Positions 14,499-20,027 of a stretch of DNA of 33,905 nucleotides are shown piece by piece (the first letter of the stretch is position 1; each line of letters begins with the position of its first letter). The notes below the pieces were generated by a model. The model worked only from the letters and a program-made list of their open reading frames with translations. It ran no database searches and was not told the DNA's origin. A program made the position numbers and the translations under genes. The DNA is taken from sequence record SRR22947725_3373. One strand, given 5' to 3'.

Positions 14499-15479
14499 AT
14501 GAACGCCCAACCTTTACCAACCCCAACCGCCCCCGCAGCCATTCTTGCGCTGTCAAAAGCTTTTGCAGATCCCTTACGCCTGGACGTCTTGCGACTGCTC
14601 CAAAACAACTCGTTCGGCGTATTGGAGCTTTGTCACATTACCACGACGCCCCAATCGGGCATGAGCCATCACTTAAAAATTCTCACCGGGTGCGGCCTGC
14701 TTGAAACAAAGCGCGAAGGCACCTCCATATTTTATCGTCGCGCGATGTTACCGCAGAACGGTTTCTTGAGCGATCTGACAAAAACCTTCTTAGAAACCCT
14801 TGACCAAACAGCCTTATCACCTGAGTTGCTCAAAACCCGTCAGGAAATCTACGATGACCGTAGTCAACAATCGGCTGACTTTTTTAAGCGCTGCGCGGCA
14901 CAGCTGAAGGAAAATCAGGATCTTGTCGCATCCTTCGAGCACTACTCCGGGTGTGTGGGAGACTTAATCGGCAACGAAAACCTTCCAAGAGAAACCCGGG
15001 TTATTGAAATCGGCGCCGGCGAAAGCCCGTTACTCACAAGCCTTTCAAGCACTTTTAAGTCCGTCCTGGTCGTTGATAACTCGGCCGAAATGCTCAAGAA
15101 GACCAAAGCAAGAGTACAACAAGAACAGCTCAAGAACGTTCACTTCATGCTGCAAGATTACGACACCCTGACCCTAGATTTCCCGGCGGACCTTTTGGTC
15201 TGCAACATGGTGCTCCATCACTTACCGGCGCCAGCCGCCTTTTTTCAAAAAGCAGCTGGACTCATCAAGCCAAAGGGCAAGCTGCTGTTAATTGACCTTT
15301 GCCCGCACCAACAAGACTGGACCCGGGACATTTGCGGGGACCTTTGGCTTGGATTCGAACCTGACGATCTCGATCTTTGGGCGAGCGCATCTGGCTTTCA
15401 GCGCGGGCAGGGCGCGTTCCTTGGTTTGAAAAATGGTTTTCAACTACAGCTGAAAATTTTCACAGCACATTCACTTTAA
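14499..15479 (+). CDS. sahR: ArsR-HTH / SAM-methyltransferase-fold regulator SahR
   Basis: KAFADPLRL...SHHLKIL...REG ArsR domain fused to an IEIGAGES...NMVLHH methyltransferase fold; lies directly upstream of ahcY. Confidence 0.85.
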   Translation: MNAQPLPTPTAPAAILALSKAFADPLRLDVLRLLQNNSFGVLELCHITTTPQSGMSHHLKILTGCGLLETKREGTSIFYRRAMLPQNGFLSDLTKTFLETLDQTALSPELLKTRQEIYDDRSQQSADFFKRCAAQLKENQDLVASFEHYSGCVGDLIGNENLPRETRVIEIGAGESPLLTSLSSTFKSVLVVDNSAEMLKKTKARVQQEQLKNVHFMLQDYDTLTLDFPADLLVCNMVLHHLPAPAAFFQKAAGLIKPKGKLLLIDLCPHQQDWTRDICGDLWLGFEPDDLDLWASASGFQRGQGAFLGLKNGFQLQLKIFTAHSL

Positions 15480-15500: not shown

Positions 15501-16862
15501 ATGACCGATTATAAAGTAGCCGATATTAGCCTCGCCGATTTTGGCCGAGCAGAAATTGAACTGGCTGAAGCAGAAATGCCAGCGCTGATGAAGCTGCGAG
15601 CCAAATACCAAACCGAACAACCGTTAAAAGGCGCCAAAGTTTTGGGTTGTATCCACATGACAATCCAGACCGCCGTTCTCATTGAGACCTTGGTTGATTT
15701 GGGTGCAGAAGTGCGCTGGTCGTCTTGCAACATTTTTTCAACCCAAGATCATGCTGCCGCGGCAATCGCTGCCAGCGGTATTGGTGTTTTCGCATGGAAG
15801 GGTCAGACTGAAGAAGAATTTCTCTGGTGTATTGAGCAAACCATCTTAAAAGATGGCAAGCCTTGGGATGCCAATATGATCTTAGATGACGGCGGCGACC
15901 TGACTGAAATGGTGCATAACAAATACCCAGATCTATTAGCGGCGATACACGGTATTACAGAAGAAACCACGACCGGGGTCCACAGACTCCAAGAAATGCT
16001 CAAAGCCGGCGAACTTAAAGTACCCGCCATTAATGTCAACGACTCTGTTACCAAATCCAAAAACGATAACAAGTATGGTTGTCGACACAGCCTGAACGAC
16101 GCAGTCAAGCGTGCAACCGACATGCTCATGGCGGGTAAAAAGGCCTTGGTCATTGGTTATGGCGATGTGGGTAAAGGCTCGGCTCAAAGTCTTCGCCAGG
16201 AAGGCATGATTGTCCGCGTCACAGAAATCGACCCTATTTGCGCCATGCAAGCCTGCATGGACGGCTACGAAGTCGTGTCTCCCTATATCAATGGCATTAA
16301 CACCGGAAAAAAAGAAGATATCGATCTACGATTGATGCAAGGCACCGATATGATTGTGACCTGCACCGGCAACGTCAATGTGTGCGATGAGAATTTGTTG
16401 GCAACGGTTGCGAGCAACGCGGTCGTTTGTAACATCGGACACTTCGACACTGAGATCGATACACAGTTCATGCGCGACAACTGGCGTTGGCAAGAAGTTA
16501 AACCGCAGGTTCATAAAATTTTCCGCAGCGACGATCCAACCGACTACATTTTGCTACTGTCAGAGGGCCGCTTGGTCAACCTTGGCAACGCGACCGGTCA
16601 CCCGTCACGCATCATGGACGGCTCTTTCGCGAACCAAGTTTTAGCACAAATGTATCTGTTCGAACGTGCGTGGGCGAGTCATGATCCGATGCAGCGGCAA
16701 CCGATCACGGTTGAGGTTTTGCCCAAAGCGCTCGATGAAGAGGTTGCGCAATACATGGTGGAAGGTTTTGGCGGGACGATTACTCGACTGACTCAAAAGC
16801 AAGCTGATTACATTAACGTGTCTGGAGAAGGTCCTTTTAAATCTGAAGAATACAAGTACTAA
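15501..16862 (+). CDS. ahcY: S-adenosylhomocysteine hydrolase
   Basis: [59 protein letters not shown]. Confidence 0.99.
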
Positions 16863-16893: not shown

Positions 16894-16948
16894 GACTCGG
16901 CGTCTGAAGTCGGAGACAATAGTGTTTCGACTTCAGGCACCTTTTTCC

Positions 16949-17815
16949 ATGAAACAAGCGCTCTCAGATCTACTCACGCTTTTAGACCTCGAACAAATTG
17001 AAACCAATCTCTTTCGCGGCGTCAGCCCCGATGAAGGTTGGCAACGCGTTTATGGCGGTCAAGTTATTGGTCAAGCATTGGTCGCAGCATCCCGAACCGT
17101 CGACGATCCAAGTCGATCCGCACACTCTTTACATGGTTATTTTTTAAGACCGGGCGATACAACTTGTCCGATTCTGTATCAGGTCGATCGCATCCGTGAT
17201 GGCCGAAGTTTTACCACCCGACGCGTCAAAGCCATTCAGAAAGGCCAGGCGATCTTTAGCATGTCGGTTTCGTTTCAGGTTATGGAGGCAGGCCTAGAGC
17301 ACCAAATGACCGCGCCCAGTGCGCCGCCGCCTGAAGACTGCAAAAGCGAAGAGATGCTGATGGATGAATACCTTCGCGACGTGCCAGAGGCTGACTCAAC
17401 CTTTGTTAAACGCCCCCGTCCGATCGAGATGCGCTTTGCGGACCCAATGAATGATGCCAACCCGAAACCTCTGGCCCCAGAGCAAAGTGTCTGGATCAAA
17501 ACCATCGATACGATGCCCGATGATGTTCGCTTGAATCAGTGCCTGCTTGCTTACGCCTCAGACATGACCTTGATCGATACCAGTTACCGGCCCCATGCGA
17601 TCAATTGGCGTCAAGATAATTTTCAGGTCGCCAGCTTGGATCATGCTATGTGGTTTCATCGCCCGTTTAAAACGGATGAATGGCTTTTGTATCATCAAGA
17701 CAGTCCCTACTCTGGCGGCGCCCGAGGCTTTAGTCGCGGCACCTTTTACGACACAGATGGCATTTTAGTGGCGTCGTGTGCACAAGAAGGTCTTATCCGG
17801 CTACACACGTCATGA
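16949..17815 (+). CDS. tesB: acyl-CoA thioesterase II
   Basis: RVYGGQVIGQAL, HSLHGYFLRPGD, RDGRSFTTRRV, LAYASD, ASLDHAMWFH, QEGLIR. Confidence 0.95.
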   Translation: MKQALSDLLTLLDLEQIETNLFRGVSPDEGWQRVYGGQVIGQALVAASRTVDDPSRSAHSLHGYFLRPGDTTCPILYQVDRIRDGRSFTTRRVKAIQKGQAIFSMSVSFQVMEAGLEHQMTAPSAPPPEDCKSEEMLMDEYLRDVPEADSTFVKRPRPIEMRFADPMNDANPKPLAPEQSVWIKTIDTMPDDVRLNQCLLAYASDMTLIDTSYRPHAINWRQDNFQVASLDHAMWFHRPFKTDEWLLYHQDSPYSGGARGFSRGTFYDTDGILVASCAQEGLIRLHTS

Positions 17816-18663
17816 TTCGGTATATCGAGCGAACCAAAGCCTATTATCGGGCGCAAGGGTTTGACAAGGACTACCAATGGGCCACGAATACGCAGACGCC
17901 GTTCAGCAAACCCGCGAGGCCACTCAAATCTGCACGGATCACGCTTGTGACCACCGCTGTCGTTGAGCCCAGCATTCCCAAACCGATCCGGGCCGCTAAA
18001 AGCTATCGATTTTCTGACGTGCCTGCGCATTTCGACACCACTGAAGTGTCCTGGGACAAGATCACAACCCATACCAACGACCGAGAATCCTACTTTCCGC
18101 TACACGCGCTCAACAAACGGGTTGCCGCGGGCGACATCGGCTCCCTCGCGCCAAGATTTCATTTTATCCCGACCGAATATAGCCAGCGTCATACCCGCGA
18201 TCAGGATGCCCCGCTGATTGCCCAGCACTGCCTCGAGGATGCCGTTGATCTCGCGATCCTGATTCCGTTGTGACCGGTTTGCCATCAAACCGTCAGTTTG
18301 GCGGCCAGAGCACTAGAGTCCGCGGGGATTGCAACCGTTGTGATTGGCTCCGCGTTAGATATTTTGCAACAGGCTGGGACGCCCCGCATCGTCTTTAACG
18401 ACTTACCTTTGGGGAACCCTGTTGGCAAACCGTTTGATCGAGCAATGCAAAATCAAACTCTCGAGGCCGCCCTCGAACTGCTTTATCAGGCTCAAAATCC
18501 TGGCGTCGTTCAACAATTGCCGAACCAGTGGTCAGCGTCCGAGGACTGGCGAGACAATTTTATGGCCATCACAGCCTTTAATAAAGAACAGCTCTTATCC
18601 CTCGGTGACGAAAACCGGCGCCAGCGCCAACGCAATCGAGAACAGGGCTTGTTCCGGCCTTAA
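17812..18663 (+). CDS. PrdB/GrdB (reductase selenoprotein B)-family protein with selenocysteine at TGA 18271-18273 (283 aa, Sec at residue 154)
   Basis: ORFs 17776..18273 and 18298..18663 share a frame. Read-through gives DLAILIPL-U-PVCHQTVSLAARALESAGIATV...GTPRIV...PLGNPVGKP, matching the UxxCH active-site region of selenoprotein B as I recall it. ATG overlaps the tesB stop (ATGA). Confidence 0.85.
18281..18305 (+). promoter_or_regulatory. candidate bacterial SECIS element
   Basis: GCCATCAAAC-CGTCA-GTTTGGCGGC: 9 of 10 pairs, 5-nt apical loop with G at position 2, 17 nt between the UGA and the loop. Confidence 0.6.
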
Positions 18664-20027
18664 TCATTCTCAACCGCACGATTTTGCATGAGCGACCGCA
18701 AGGCAATAACCGTTCCGAGTACGCCCGAAATGACGGCTGGCCGAGGTTCGATCTGAAAAAGCGGCGAATGATGCGATGGCAGAGACTGGCCCTTTGCTTC
18801 AAAAGCTGCAAAACGCGCTTGGGATGTGCCGCCTACCGAGAAATAAACACTGGGTATACCAGGATCCTGGGTGAAAAACGGGAAATCTTCGCCGCCCATA
18901 CCCTCTCGCTCATAGACAGCAATGATGTCCTCACCCAGCTCGTCCGCCCAAGCCTTGAGTACCTGACTCGCCAAATCGGCATTATTTTCAGTAACCGGTA
19001 CGCCCCCTTTCATTTCAAGATAAGGCAACTGACTTTCTGGCAATCCACCCGCGCGCCCGATATTCACCGCGATGCGTTCAATCGCTGCGAGCAATAGGGT
19101 TCTGGTTTGCCCGGAATCTGACCGAACGGTTAACTCTAACCGCGCCTCTTCTCCGATGACATTGCGTTTGTTGCCGGCGCGAAAAACCCCAACGGTCACA
19201 ACTGCCGGCTCTCGTGGCGAGACCTCCCGCGCCACAATGGTTTGCAGCGCCAACACGATCTGCGCGCCGATGACGATCGGATCACGACCGCGATGCGGGC
19301 TCGCACCATGAGCCCCAATCCCCGGGACAACGATGTCCAAAGAATCGACCGCCGAATAAGCGGCGCCTCGGGATGCAAACAACTTGCCGGCCTCAATGTC
19401 CGCGGCAACATGAAACCCCAGCGCAAAGTCTGGCGTTCCAAAGCGCTGCCAAATGCCCGCGGCGCGCATGGCTGCAGCACCAGAATCCTTCCACTCCTCC
19501 GCCGGTTGCGCGATCAACATTAACGTGCCGGACCAGGTCTCTTTGTGCGCCGCCATTATCTGCGCTGTACCGATCAAGGAGGTGATATGAACATCGTGTC
19601 CGCAGGCATGCATGACAGGGAAACGCTGACCCTCTAAATTTTCCTGCACAACTTGCGACGCATAGGGTAAACCGCTGCGCTCTTTGACGGGCAAGGCGTC
19701 CATATCCGCCCGCATCATGACCAAGGGTCCAGCGCCATTGTGAAGCAGCGCAACAACTCCCGTCCTGGCAATGCCAGAATGCACCTCATAACCCAACGCG
19801 CTGAGTTCCTGAGCCATCCTTGCCGCCGTCTTAACCTCAACGAAAGACAGTTCCGGGTTGGCGTGAAAGTGTTTAAACAGCTGATCGAGGGATTGATCAT
19901 ACAAGGCTGCCACCTCCTGCTGCAGCGGGTCCTGCGCCGCCAAAGCAACACTGGGCACAGCCCAAAAACAGAAGCTCATAAACAACATGCGAAGGACTGA
20001 GTTCATCCAGTGGGCCATGATCTTCAT
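18660..20027 (-). CDS. M20D-family amidohydrolase/carboxypeptidase with signal peptide
   Basis: HANPELS, RADMDALP, MHACGHD, QPAEE, GAHGASP, GGEDF, HHSP; SD GAGG. Confidence 0.92.
   Translation of the reverse strand: MKIMAHWMNSVLRMLFMSFCFWAVPSVALAAQDPLQQEVAALYDQSLDQLFKHFHANPELSFVEVKTAARMAQELSALGYEVHSGIARTGVVALLHNGAGPLVMMRADMDALPVKERSGLPYASQVVQENLEGQRFPVMHACGHDVHITSLIGTAQIMAAHKETWSGTLMLIAQPAEEWKDSGAAAMRAAGIWQRFGTPDFALGFHVAADIEAGKLFASRGAAYSAVDSLDIVVPGIGAHGASPHRGRDPIVIGAQIVLALQTIVAREVSPREPAVVTVGVFRAGNKRNVIGEEARLELTVRSDSGQTRTLLLAAIERIAVNIGRAGGLPESQLPYLEMKGGVPVTENNADLASQVLKAWADELGEDIIAVYEREGMGGEDFPFFTQDPGIPSVYFSVGGTSQARFAAFEAKGQSLPSHHSPLFQIEPRPAVISGVLGTVIALRSLMQNRAVEND

Follow-up and report, generated by a model that had tools for sequence, protein, structure and literature searches.

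Two adjacent open reading frames that lie in the same frame and are parted by a single TGA raise the question of whether they are the remains of a broken gene or one gene whose UGA is decoded as selenocysteine (Sec). The locus is found in a 33,905-nucleotide stretch of DNA from sequence record SRR22947725_3373, hereafter called the window. Under genetic code table 11, the first ORF ends at TGA 18271-18273, and the same frame then continues as CCG GTT TGC CAT CAA ACC GTC. The second ORF has TTG 18298 as its sole table-11 start, as a preliminary description of this DNA had pointed out. Translation with TGA as U yields a protein of 283 residues with U154, followed by P-V-C-H-Q, and a terminal TAA at 18661-18663, and we thus recover the rejoined U-P-V-C-H-Q-T-V frame just as it had been proposed. 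The preliminary description also had the gene fill the space between the tesB stop and the stop of a convergent M20 gene. This arrangement is indeed present: the ATG at 17812-17814 overlaps the tesB stop at 17813-17815 (ATGA), and the terminal TTAA is common to the stops of the selenoprotein and M20 genes.

The features of the locus are collected in Table 1. The genes surrounding the selenoprotein gene in the window are tesB, ahcY, and the M20 gene. TesB scores 304 bits against TIGR00189 (cut-off 292.85), and the M20 ORF scores 254.5 bits against TIGR01891 (cut-off 153.75). Given the ATGA overlap, tesB and the selenoprotein gene are probably co-transcribed and translationally coupled. Contigs assembled from RNA libraries cover the selenoprotein gene, which is no proof of transcription. 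We consider it highly probable that positions 17812-18663 constitute a single gene for a cytoplasmic selenoprotein of the GrdB/PrdB superfamily that has the PrdB domain architecture, whose UGA is decoded via SelB, and which acts independently of a partner rather than as a subunit of D-proline reductase.

Table 1. Features of the PrdB-like selenoprotein locus (window coordinates)
Feature	Position	Strand	Description and basis
Acyl-CoA thioesterase II gene (tesB), upstream	16922..17815	+	TIGR00189, Pfam
PrdB-like selenoprotein CDS	17812..18663	+	ATG to TAA, 283 codons, one in-frame TGA
In-frame TGA, Sec codon (residue 154)	18271..18273	+	TGA in 76/78 related loci
TGC, Cys157, second UxxC residue	18280..18282	+	Presumed resolving Cys; invariant column, role inferred
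Hairpin A, family-wide SECIS-type	18285..18301	+	Stem 18285-18290/18296-18301, loop 18291-18295 CGUCA; RNAalifold, covariation
Hairpin B, alternative overlapping hairpin A	18290..18304	+	Stem 18290-18295/18299-18304, loop GUU; genus-level group of the window only
M20-family amidohydrolase gene, convergent	18660..20027	-	455 aa; Pfam Peptidase_M20 and M20_dimer, TIGR01891

We hold with near certainty that UGA 18271-18273 encodes Sec because the reading frame, homology across the UGA, conservation of the TGA, a SECIS hairpin, and the presence of Sec machinery all point to the same conclusion. Of 78 motif-bearing related loci, drawn from several phyla, 76 have TGA at codon 154 and the other two have a Cys codon (TGC or TGT). 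Matches were found in 24 of 41 related genomes, and exactly one TGA is present in 75 of these 76 matches; the 76th is a fragment of 45 residues. Orthologues from the same genus, which are 58-99% identical, likewise retain the two halves in one frame, interrupted by a single TGA. Among 121 database homologues, residue 154 is Cys in 118 and Trp in two, and the motif is absent in one, which agrees with the expectation expressed in advance that homologues should carry Cys or Sec at this site. Natural substitutes for the TGA codon are exclusively Cys codons.

At least 590 relatives are present among species-representative genomes, where the family is scattered and is represented by a single gene in many lineages, with up to six copies in some genomes. 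Such sets of up to 6 paralogues per genome occur in the marine gammaproteobacterial family to which the window belongs. The holders are labelled as marine and soil Gamma- and Alphaproteobacteria, Myxococcota, Chloroflexota, and Acidimicrobiia, and one alphaproteobacterial order holds a mixture of Sec and Cys forms.

The minimal SECIS geometry of Escherichia coli comprises an 11-nt spacer and a 17-nt upper stem-loop, with a G and a U in the loop making contacts. In the family studied here, a conserved hairpin region is located 14-32 nt after the UGA, and the stem begins 11-12 nt after this codon. This is hairpin A, whose stem corresponds to positions 15-20/26-31 of the alignment (position 15 is 18285) and which was predicted independently by RNAalifold. 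Its partners are paired in 95.4% of cells, compared to 15-32% when the partner strand is slid. The observed values for paired cells, for cells changed on both sides, and for the covariation score were never attained in 500 shuffles. Compensatory changes occur at pairs 15-31 and 18-28 and are synonymous. Pair 18-28, which joins the wobble base of the Gln codon with the first base of the Leu codon, is GC in 62 sequences, AU in 9, GU in 6, and broken in none. Position 27 is U in all 77 Sec sequences. The five core pairs are kept in all 10 motif-bearing paralogues, which build them from other stems (CAGUC/GACUG, CGCGC/GCGCG). Furthermore, within the alphaproteobacterial order of mixed composition, all five core pairs are present in 14 of 14 Sec loci versus 1 of 16 Cys loci; in other words, the hairpin has been lost in 15 of the 16 Cys forms.

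In the window itself, hairpin A is weak (-3.0 kcal/mol) and is rivalled locally by hairpins of -7.0 and -7.7 kcal/mol. The former is hairpin B, all six pairs of which form in 9 of the 77 Sec sequences. They also form in 8 of 9 orthologues from the genus, where pair 21-33 shows an exchange of C-G for U-A. The latter, at alignment positions 5-11/16-22, forms 7/7 pairs in the window and was rejected as a SECIS because the P-V-C-H-Q-T codons dictate five of its pairs, because its two wobble pairs form in only 24 and 53 of the 77 sequences, and because it is too close to the UGA. The fold of the 70 nt downstream of the UGA is no better than that of shuffled sequences (z 0.16), and the SECIS is visible only by sequence comparison. 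We propose that the short hairpin within the H-Q-T-V-S-L codons would recruit SelB, and that SelA, SelB, SelC, and SelD would together decode the UGA.

Genes for this machinery are present in G001, which is the nearest genome examined rather than the assembly of the window itself and which shares 85% of sampled words. Profile scores there are 370.5 bits for selB, 563.9 for selA, and 252.8 for selD; alongside these genes is a tRNA-Sec whose anticodon is tca. Three marks by which bacterial selenoproteins are recognized were found: a UGA that aligns with Cys, a SECIS downstream, and selA/selB/selC/selD, the latter in G001. The preliminary description had named four outcomes that would speak against Sec, namely a residue other than Cys at this position in homologues, halves that match unrelated families, a lack of sel genes, and a sequencing error. 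Every one of these tests came out in favor of Sec. Nearly all homologues have Cys, both halves match a single family continuously across the TGA (TIGR04483, residues 31-240), the sel genes are found in G001, and the contigs of four independent runs, from four studies, are identical at 18271-18273, with the TGA unchanged.

These same data bear on two readings in which no Sec is inserted. A pseudogene created by a nonsense mutation, or a sequencing error, would make the TGA a true stop with an untranslated downstream part, and such a gene would indeed appear as two table-11 ORFs whose halves are separate in public records. This is very improbable given a TGA that recurs in 76/78 loci and in 75/76 of the relatives' matches with both halves conserved as protein, a linked hairpin that is maintained by synonymous covariation, and the identical TGA in four independent assemblies. 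It is still harder to credit that the UGA is read as Trp or another standard residue through an altered code or general read-through. The two database homologues with W at the site, P0110 and P0002, could be taken to favor a Trp reading; P0002 is known from one record only. In the P0110 cluster, however, the gene caller read the TGA as Trp, and the 298-aa W forms are restricted to short contigs of 1.2-2 kb, whereas long contigs are cut exactly at the codon, giving 173-aa members that stop just before W174. Moreover, the neighboring tesB gene ends with a TGA, the codon is replaced naturally by Cys codons only, and complete Sec machinery is present in G001.

By profile homology, the predicted protein belongs to the GrdB/PrdB superfamily. 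The NCBIfam PrdB profile TIGR04483 matches residues 31-240 of 283 (profile 20-234 of 238) with an E value of 1.8e-26, and U154-P-V-C157 falls inside this aligned stretch at the position equivalent to the UxxC of PrdB. The score is 93 bits, which is below the equivalog cut-off of 300; paralogues reach 159.8 and 111 bits. The GrdH, GrdF, TIGR01917, and TIGR01918 profiles match with E values of 3.5e-7 to 3.4e-6, and the TIGR01918 score of 27.8 bits is under its cut-off of 65.45. With Pfam GRDB (PF07355), the whole protein obtains 14.5 bits and its N-terminal half 17.1, both short of the threshold of 22, which is exceeded by paralogues L002 and L003 (32.9 and 33 bits). The designation PrdB/GrdB-like in the preliminary description is therefore sound with regard to a relationship to PrdB, but the protein remains under the curated cut-offs of PrdB, GrdB, and Pfam GRDB. 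On these scores it classifies as a PrdB-like relative that is neither PrdB nor GrdB proper.

The database searches returned 419 homologues, and the full-length ones are approximately 290 aa long and align with 92-100% of the read-through product. C157, H158, and Q159 are invariant in alignments of 19 and 65 sequences, and position 154 is nearly invariantly Cys. P155 and V156 are invariant in the 19-sequence alignment and conserved to at least 90% in the 65-sequence alignment. Invariant polar residues are also found far from the motif (D82, D90, S124, T128, D132, R192, D197, and N202).

A family with these properties has been described before. Since 2005, marine selenoproteome surveys have listed 'proline reductase PrdB', with its UxxC motif, among the leading selenoprotein families (PMC1088965, PMC2398784). 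The Sargasso Sea survey of 2005 counted 42 Sec forms of PrdB versus 1 Cys form (PMC1088965), and the GOS survey of 2008 counted 235 Sec forms (PMC2398784). In their passages on this family, the surveys treat it as proline reductase, and the missing PrdA is not addressed there (PMC1088965, PMC2398784). As far as those accounts describe it, the survey family resembles the protein studied here in its UxxC motif, its weak relation to pfam07355, its marine origin, and its preponderance of Sec over Cys (here 76 TGA versus 2 Cys). From these shared properties, we tentatively infer that both belong to the same clade. Members of related clusters in Tara and JGI also bear the name PrdB, and JGI fragments are called 'D-proline reductase (dithiol) PrdB'. 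Judging from the surveys, then, the gene is not new as a kind, since its family is already known from the ocean. The preliminary description's term 'hidden' is apt for the database records, in which annotation has yielded two pieces, as anticipated: NCBI nr, ENA, and JGI each contain the N-terminal piece of exactly 153 aa and the C-terminal piece of exactly 121 aa as separate proteins. It is not apt for the family, whose status as a selenoprotein family has been in print since 2005.

PF09338, the PrdA/GrdE family, was not found in 46 genomes, nor did it match in 14 control genomes. The 46 comprise 41 genomes from the set of G001 relatives (G001 included) and five holders from other phyla, and 29 of them hold the PrdB-like family. 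The five holders from other phyla, in which PF09338 was sought as a positive control, gave no match either. A GRDA search produced a single sub-threshold match of 20.3 bits. Across 56 related loci, the neighbors are diverse and none is conserved immediately beside the gene: the tesB neighbor recurs only at L022, L024, and L025, and the M20 neighbor only at L022 and L024. No PrdA, PrdC, PrdH, or GrdA-type gene adjoins any of the 56 loci. The co-encoded PrdA and the PrdH, PrdC, and PrdF cluster that accompany a true PrdB were not found beside the gene in the window, and the PF09338 search across genomes had no positive control. A proline racemase gene adjoins one of the 56 loci (L095), and some paralogues adjoin genes for transporters or dioxygenases (a Na+/solute symporter, a TauD-type dioxygenase). 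It is likely that the protein works without a partner of the PrdA/GrdE type.

Two other functions must be weighed at this point. The protein could be the B subunit of a canonical D-proline, glycine, sarcosine, or betaine reductase whose PrdA or GrdE is encoded elsewhere in the genome, and with PrdB as the best family match, a UxxC at the same place, the name carried by the JGI fragments, the proline racemase gene beside L095, and PrdA searches that lacked a positive control, this view has some support. We nevertheless find it improbable. The score of 93 bits is far from the equivalog cut-off of 300, PF09338 was not found in the 46 genomes, of which 29 carry the family and some have as many as six copies, no PrdA, PrdC, PrdH, or GrdA-type gene lies beside any of the 56 loci, and the holders are labelled as marine and soil Gamma- and Alphaproteobacteria, Myxococcota, Chloroflexota, and Acidimicrobiia, not as Stickland fermenters. 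Because no PrdA/GrdE-type partner and no fixed neighbor are apparent, we do not regard the protein as a D-proline reductase subunit.

A real selenoprotein might instead serve as a general oxidoreductase of the thiol-disulfide or peroxide type, or as a redox sensor, rather than as an enzyme that cleaves small molecules. The placement of UxxC at a strand-to-helix junction in an AF2 model would suit such a role, as would the lack of a conserved metabolic neighbor and the occurrence of the gene singly and scattered across many lineages. However, the only characterized relatives, as presented in PMC11229817, are substrate-cleaving reductases. Likewise, the large number of invariant polar residues distant from the motif, and the diverged paralogues, up to six per genome and some of them by transporters or dioxygenases, fit substrate-specific enzymes better. 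We therefore see a general oxidoreductase as an unlikely reading, and favor a partner-independent selenoenzyme related to PrdB.

The AF2 model of the protein has a pLDDT of 92.4 over the whole chain and a pTM of 0.92. A strand at 147-151 is followed by a helix at 155-170, which places Sec154 where the beta-strand ends and the helix is capped at its N-terminus, with Cys157 one turn on. A profile search of PDB sequences gave no relative (best E 0.068), and Foldseek gave no PDB match at E <= 0.001. Therefore, no solved structure informs function. A wide VIA-align comparison returned only unspecific matches of the Rossmann-like and periplasmic-binding-like types. Their Z scores, 8.8 at most, stay within the stated background of the tool, and these matches were set aside. 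By analogy with PrdB, in so far as PMC11229817 describes it, and from the geometry of the model, the chemistry most likely resides in a Sec154/Cys157 redox pair. The Sec154 selenolate would attack the substrate, Cys157 would resolve the adduct to form a selenenyl-sulfide, and a dithiol donor would then re-reduce the selenenyl-sulfide.

What such an enzyme might do in the sea is a matter for speculation. One doubtful idea is that aerobic PrdB-like selenoproteins are self-sufficient, need no pyruvoyl partner, and have radiated into substrate-specific paralogues that cleave C-N or C-S bonds of marine solutes. By the same tentative reasoning, osmolytes or amino-acid derivatives might be cleaved reductively under oxic conditions. 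If self-sufficient selenoenzymes of this sort exist, they would amount to a branch of selenium-dependent catabolism that has not been described, and would explain why the family ranks among the commonest selenoprotein families in the sea. One of the most abundant marine selenoprotein families is still labelled 'proline reductase', and the indispensable PrdA was not found in the 46 genomes examined. There are practical consequences as well, since public databases contain this gene, like hundreds of its relatives, in the form of two truncated proteins. The SECIS register (a stem 11-12 nt after the UGA, a G-U in the loop, a Ser codon fixed as AGU, and Gln and Leu codons that co-vary) would make automatic annotation feasible. 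In addition, the mixture of Sec and Cys forms in one alphaproteobacterial order constitutes a natural experiment on Sec/Cys exchange and the decay of a SECIS.

Comparison with known systems places the gene at some distance from each of them. The SECIS is similar to that of E. coli fdhF in that a short stem-loop is embedded in the coding region, with a stem that begins 11-12 nt downstream of the UGA and a G-U in the apical loop. It differs in that the stem comprises only 5-7 bp, the loop has 5 nt, and a bulged U is absent; in the lineage of the window, an alternative hairpin whose loop is GUU overlaps it. GrdB, GrdF, and GrdH (PF07355, TIGR01917/01918) are homologous around the Sec site and have the UxxC in common with the protein described here. 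Unlike GrdB, however, this protein is without the N-terminal segment of approximately 200 residues, such that matches begin near position 200 of 431-435, and our searches found no GrdE and only the sub-threshold GrdA match. The closest counterpart is the D-proline reductase PrdB of Clostridium sticklandii and Clostridioides difficile (TIGR04483), which is the best profile match and is alike in size and domain architecture. PrdB has its Sec in a UxxC near residue 150, as compared with U154 here, and a U151C variant of the C. difficile protein has been published (PMC11229817). In contrast to PrdB, the protein from the window extends further at its C-terminus by approximately 45 residues, which include a basic helix (258-277), and its gene lacks the PrdA, PrdH, PrdC, and PrdF context. 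In D-proline reductase, the pyruvoyl group of PrdA holds the substrate, whereas the protein described here apparently acts on its own.

The PrdB-like selenoprotein gene begins at an ATG whose last two bases overlap the upstream gene's TGA stop (ATGA), and under translation table 11 the ORF from this ATG terminates at TGA 18271-18273. Beyond the TGA, the codons CCG GTT TGC CAT CAA ACC GTC follow in the same frame, which remains open until a TAA. A 455-aa ORF converges on the gene, and the two stops share TTAA. A second table-11 ORF has TTG 18298 as its sole start. The features given in the preliminary description are all present. Translation with TGA read as selenocysteine (Sec, U) yields 283 residues, with U154 located within U-P-V-C-H-Q. 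The data show a single frame whose UGA is conserved together with a linked SECIS, and the nearest relative genome (G001) carries Sec machinery, observations that bear out the earlier proposal that this UGA encodes selenocysteine.

Features of the selenoprotein gene and its surroundings in the window
Feature	Position	Strand	Remarks
ArsR-type HTH fused to SAM-dependent methyltransferase	14499-15479		Upstream of S-adenosylhomocysteine hydrolase
S-adenosylhomocysteine hydrolase (ahcY)	15501-16862		Followed by tesB, then the selenoprotein gene
Acyl-CoA thioesterase II (tesB)			Directly upstream; TGA stop overlaps selenoprotein ATG
PrdB-like selenoprotein CDS	17812-18663	+	ATG 17812 to TAA 18661-18663, TGA read as U
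Hairpin A	18285-18301	+	Intact, 6 pairs including one G-U; weak, -3.0 kcal/mol
Hairpin B	18290-18304	+	Overlaps A, loop GUU; stronger, -7.0 kcal/mol
M20 amidohydrolase (455-aa convergent ORF) and two further amidohydrolases		opposite	Downstream

Homology extends across the TGA. Residues 31-240 match the PrdB profile of NCBIfam, TIGR04483 (E = 1.8e-26), over positions 20-234 of its 238. From the 5.8 billion proteins searched, 419 homologues were recovered, the best 120 of which are mostly ~290 aa with query coverage of 78-100%. C157, H158, and Q159 are invariant in alignments of both 19 and 65 sequences, P155 and V156 are invariant in the former and at least 90% conserved in the latter, and no less than 90% of rows in either alignment have Cys at residue 154. 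Among 121 stored homologues, site 154 is Cys in 118 and Trp in 2, and the motif is missing from 1. Thus, homologues do carry Cys at this residue and align through the UGA as had been anticipated. The suggested comparison with Pfam GRDB succeeded only in part, as a match is found (14.5-17.1 bits) but it is restricted to the N-terminal half and misses the cut-off of 22. Indeed, the protein is below every curated cut-off tried: it scores 93 bits for TIGR04483 (cut-off 300), 27.8 bits for TIGR01918 (cut-off 65.45), and 14.5 bits for GRDB.

The Trp at this site in the database homologue P0110 is an artefact of a gene caller that read TGA as Trp. Within the P0110 cluster, 173-aa members stop exactly before W174, 118-aa members begin just after it, and the 298-aa W forms are restricted to contigs of 1.2-2 kb. 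The other W form, P0002, is a single record.

In a scan using one genome per species, at least 590 relatives were found, of which the 80 top-ranking loci were retained. PVCHQ is present in 78 of these (the pattern is unmatched in L087 and L093), where the preceding codon is TGA in 76, TGC in 1, and TGT in 1. The holders of the best 80 loci are labeled as MAGs of Gammaproteobacteria/Pseudomonadales, Alphaproteobacteria (Reyranella, Rhodospirillaceae), Myxococcota/'Deltaproteobacteria', Chloroflexota, Acidimicrobiia, and Burkholderiales. When 41 genomes around G001 were searched, matches emerged in 24, representing 24 of the 25 genomes of its own family versus 0 of 16 from the order's other families, with 1-6 copies per matching genome. 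Exactly one TGA occurs in 75 of the 76 matches from these 24 genomes, and the remaining match is a 45-residue fragment. All genus orthologues, from 99% down to 58% identity, keep the TGA. Furthermore, the gene is covered by contigs of 2 DNA runs and 2 RNA-library runs from 4 different studies, which match the window except at 17866, 17931, 18312, 18584, and 18759. Because these contigs never differ at 18271-18273, the sequencing error that had been named as a potential refutation is excluded. Separately, 15 studies contribute 19 public runs in which positions 17700-18800 are near-intact (a share of 0.77-0.90 of sampled words); the runs are labeled as marine, estuary, aquatic, and freshwater metagenomes, and 6 of them are metatranscriptome libraries.

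The Sec machinery was sought in G001, a 98% complete genome that shares 85% of sampled words and has an orthologue at 99% identity. The preliminary description had called for selA, selB, selC, and selD, and all four are present. The selB (370.5 bits) and selA (563.9 bits) genes are mutually adjacent, selD scores 252.8 bits, and ARAGORN calls tRNA-SeC with anticodon tca, for which the Rfam tRNA-Sec score (45.8 bits) is slightly below the gathering score of 47. The selD gene (locus L012, 1396-3618, minus strand) encodes a 740-aa protein in which a pyridine nucleotide-disulphide oxidoreductase domain is fused N-terminally to SelD (AIRS/AIRS_C) domains. NADH-dehydrogenase-like SelD fusions are already in the literature.

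Across the window and 76 loci, 77 Sec-type sequences in all, RNAalifold predicts a SECIS-type hairpin (hairpin A) with stem 15-20/26-31 and loop 21-25, counted from the U of UGA as 1 and frequently lengthened by pair 14-32. The loop is CGUGA in most sequences and CGUCA in the window. In hairpin A, 95.4% of cells are paired, a share that drops to 15-32% when the partner is shifted by 1-3 columns, and 0 of 500 shuffles matched its paired fraction, doubly changed cells, or covariation score. Pair 18-28, between the Gln-codon wobble base and the first Leu-codon base, is never broken (62 GC, 9 AU, 6 GU); pair 15-31 is broken in 4 sequences and is otherwise CG (62), UA (8), or UG (3). The Ser codon is AGU throughout, with U27 in 77 of 77. 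The five core pairs are kept in all 10 motif-bearing paralogues (11 were fetched), whose stems vary (CAGUC/GACUG, CGCGC/GCGCG); the most distant paralogues also differ in peptide.

The natural Cys forms serve as a control. We took the 30 best matches in the alphaproteobacterial order of genome G042, where 66 of 121 genomes match; this tally includes G142 and G115 (flagged unpublished), from which none of the 30 loci derive. All five core pairs are retained in 14 of 14 Sec loci, whereas the 16 Cys loci retain five in one case, four in five, three in nine, and two in one, with a Ser codon that is mostly AGC and a Leu codon that is often CUC. From the paralogues and the Cys forms, hairpin A is not simply a consequence of the encoded peptide. 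Close orthologues in this order (L123-L152) form a mosaic of 14 Sec and 16 Cys loci, and nearly all matching genomes there also carry a longer GrdB-like paralogue (a frame of ~400-490 aa with one TGA). The order therefore offers a natural series for Sec/Cys exchange and SECIS decay.

The overlapping hairpin B is fully paired (6 of 6) in just 9 of the 77 Sec sequences but in 8 of 9 genus orthologues, and its pair 21-33 shows an exchange of C-G for U-A. In one orthologue (L103), hairpin A contains a mismatch and hairpin B does not. In the window's lineage, SelB may bind either hairpin. A perfect 7-bp hairpin, CGGUUUG/CAAACCG (18275-18292, -7.7 kcal/mol), also lies immediately 3' of the UGA; the P-V-C-H-Q-T codons force 5 of its pairs, and it is an overlapping competitor of the SECIS hairpin. 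The SECIS geometry resembles that of E. coli fdhF in three respects: a stem that starts 11-12 nt past the UGA, a short helix, and a G-U in the loop.

An AF2 model from the 65-sequence alignment (pLDDT 92.4, pTM 0.92) has an alpha/beta fold. Strand 147-151 runs into helix 155-170, which would place Sec154 at the predicted junction and Cys157 in the opening helical turn. Neither a PDB sequence-profile search (best E 0.068) nor Foldseek (best E 0.011) found a solved relative. Matches of VIA-align to LacI-type and short-chain-dehydrogenase folds (Z up to 8.8) are within that tool's stated background and were set aside.

By analogy with PrdB, Sec154 probably serves as the nucleophile, Cys157 would resolve the adduct to give a selenenyl-sulfide, and a dithiol donor would then reduce this bond. 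The enzyme probably works without a pyruvoyl partner. Given the ATGA overlap, the gene and tesB probably share one transcript. Polar residues are invariant at many sites beyond the motif and the paralogues have diverged, both of which tilt the balance, tentatively, toward enzymes with specific substrates and away from a general disulfide reductase. Two such paralogues in G001 are PrdB/GrdB-like, each with one in-frame TGA and a hairpin in the same register 3' of the UGA. The first (L002, 1351-2289, minus strand) is a 312-aa UPVCHQ form that adjoins a sodium:solute symporter and a glyoxalase-type gene, and the other (L003, 964-2196, minus strand; ~410 aa) has a UPNC motif and adjoins a TauD-type dioxygenase.

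The PrdB-like selenoprotein family is already in print. Relevant passages rank 'proline reductase PrdB' (UxxC) third by abundance among Sargasso Sea selenoprotein families (42 Sec genes against 1 Cys homologue; PMC1088965), count 235 Sec genes in GOS (PMC2398784), and list 'proline reductase' selenoproteins in Anaeromyxobacter and Geobacter (PMC1794560). D-proline reductase is likewise among the most widespread families in 2022 and 2026 reviews and a 2016 survey (PMC9312934, PMC13188914, PMC5029168). The marine 'PrdB' of the surveys is probably the clade of the window protein. The corresponding passages of these six sources do not discuss a missing PrdA, and no paper on the function of stand-alone PrdB-like proteins in aerobes turned up in the full-text literature searched. 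The gene is thus an additional member of a known family, stored by databases in two pieces as had been predicted, and would not surprise a selenoprotein specialist. New here are the precise mapping of the SECIS with Cys forms as control, evidence for a PrdB-like family standing alone without PrdA, and the paralogue expansion in G001's gammaproteobacterial family.

Neighboring genes are diverse across 56 related loci. TesB is an immediate neighbor only in L022, L024, and L025, which also share the ahcY-tesB-selenoprotein order (by ORF sizes and Pfam on tesB), and M20 only in L022 and L024; others include HpcH-type aldolases (3), alpha/beta hydrolases (5), and a proline racemase (1). PrdA, the pyruvoyl-bearing subunit, is an immediate neighbor in 0 of 56. 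Its family PF09338 (PrdA/GrdE) was not found in the 41 genomes around and including G001 or in 5 holders from other phyla, a search without a positive control since 0 of 14 control genomes matched, and Pfam GRDA gave a single sub-threshold match (20.3 bits). In D-proline reductase, as described in PMC11229817, the substrate is held on the PrdA pyruvoyl group, the PrdB Sec attacks the alpha-carbon, PrdC regenerates the enzyme, and PrdA, PrdB, and PrdH are encoded together. This PrdA/PrdC/PrdH context was not found around the window gene. The protein itself is homologous to PrdB and has the same architecture; compared with GrdB it lacks the N-terminal ~200 residues, and it adds ~45 C-terminal residues that include a basic helix.
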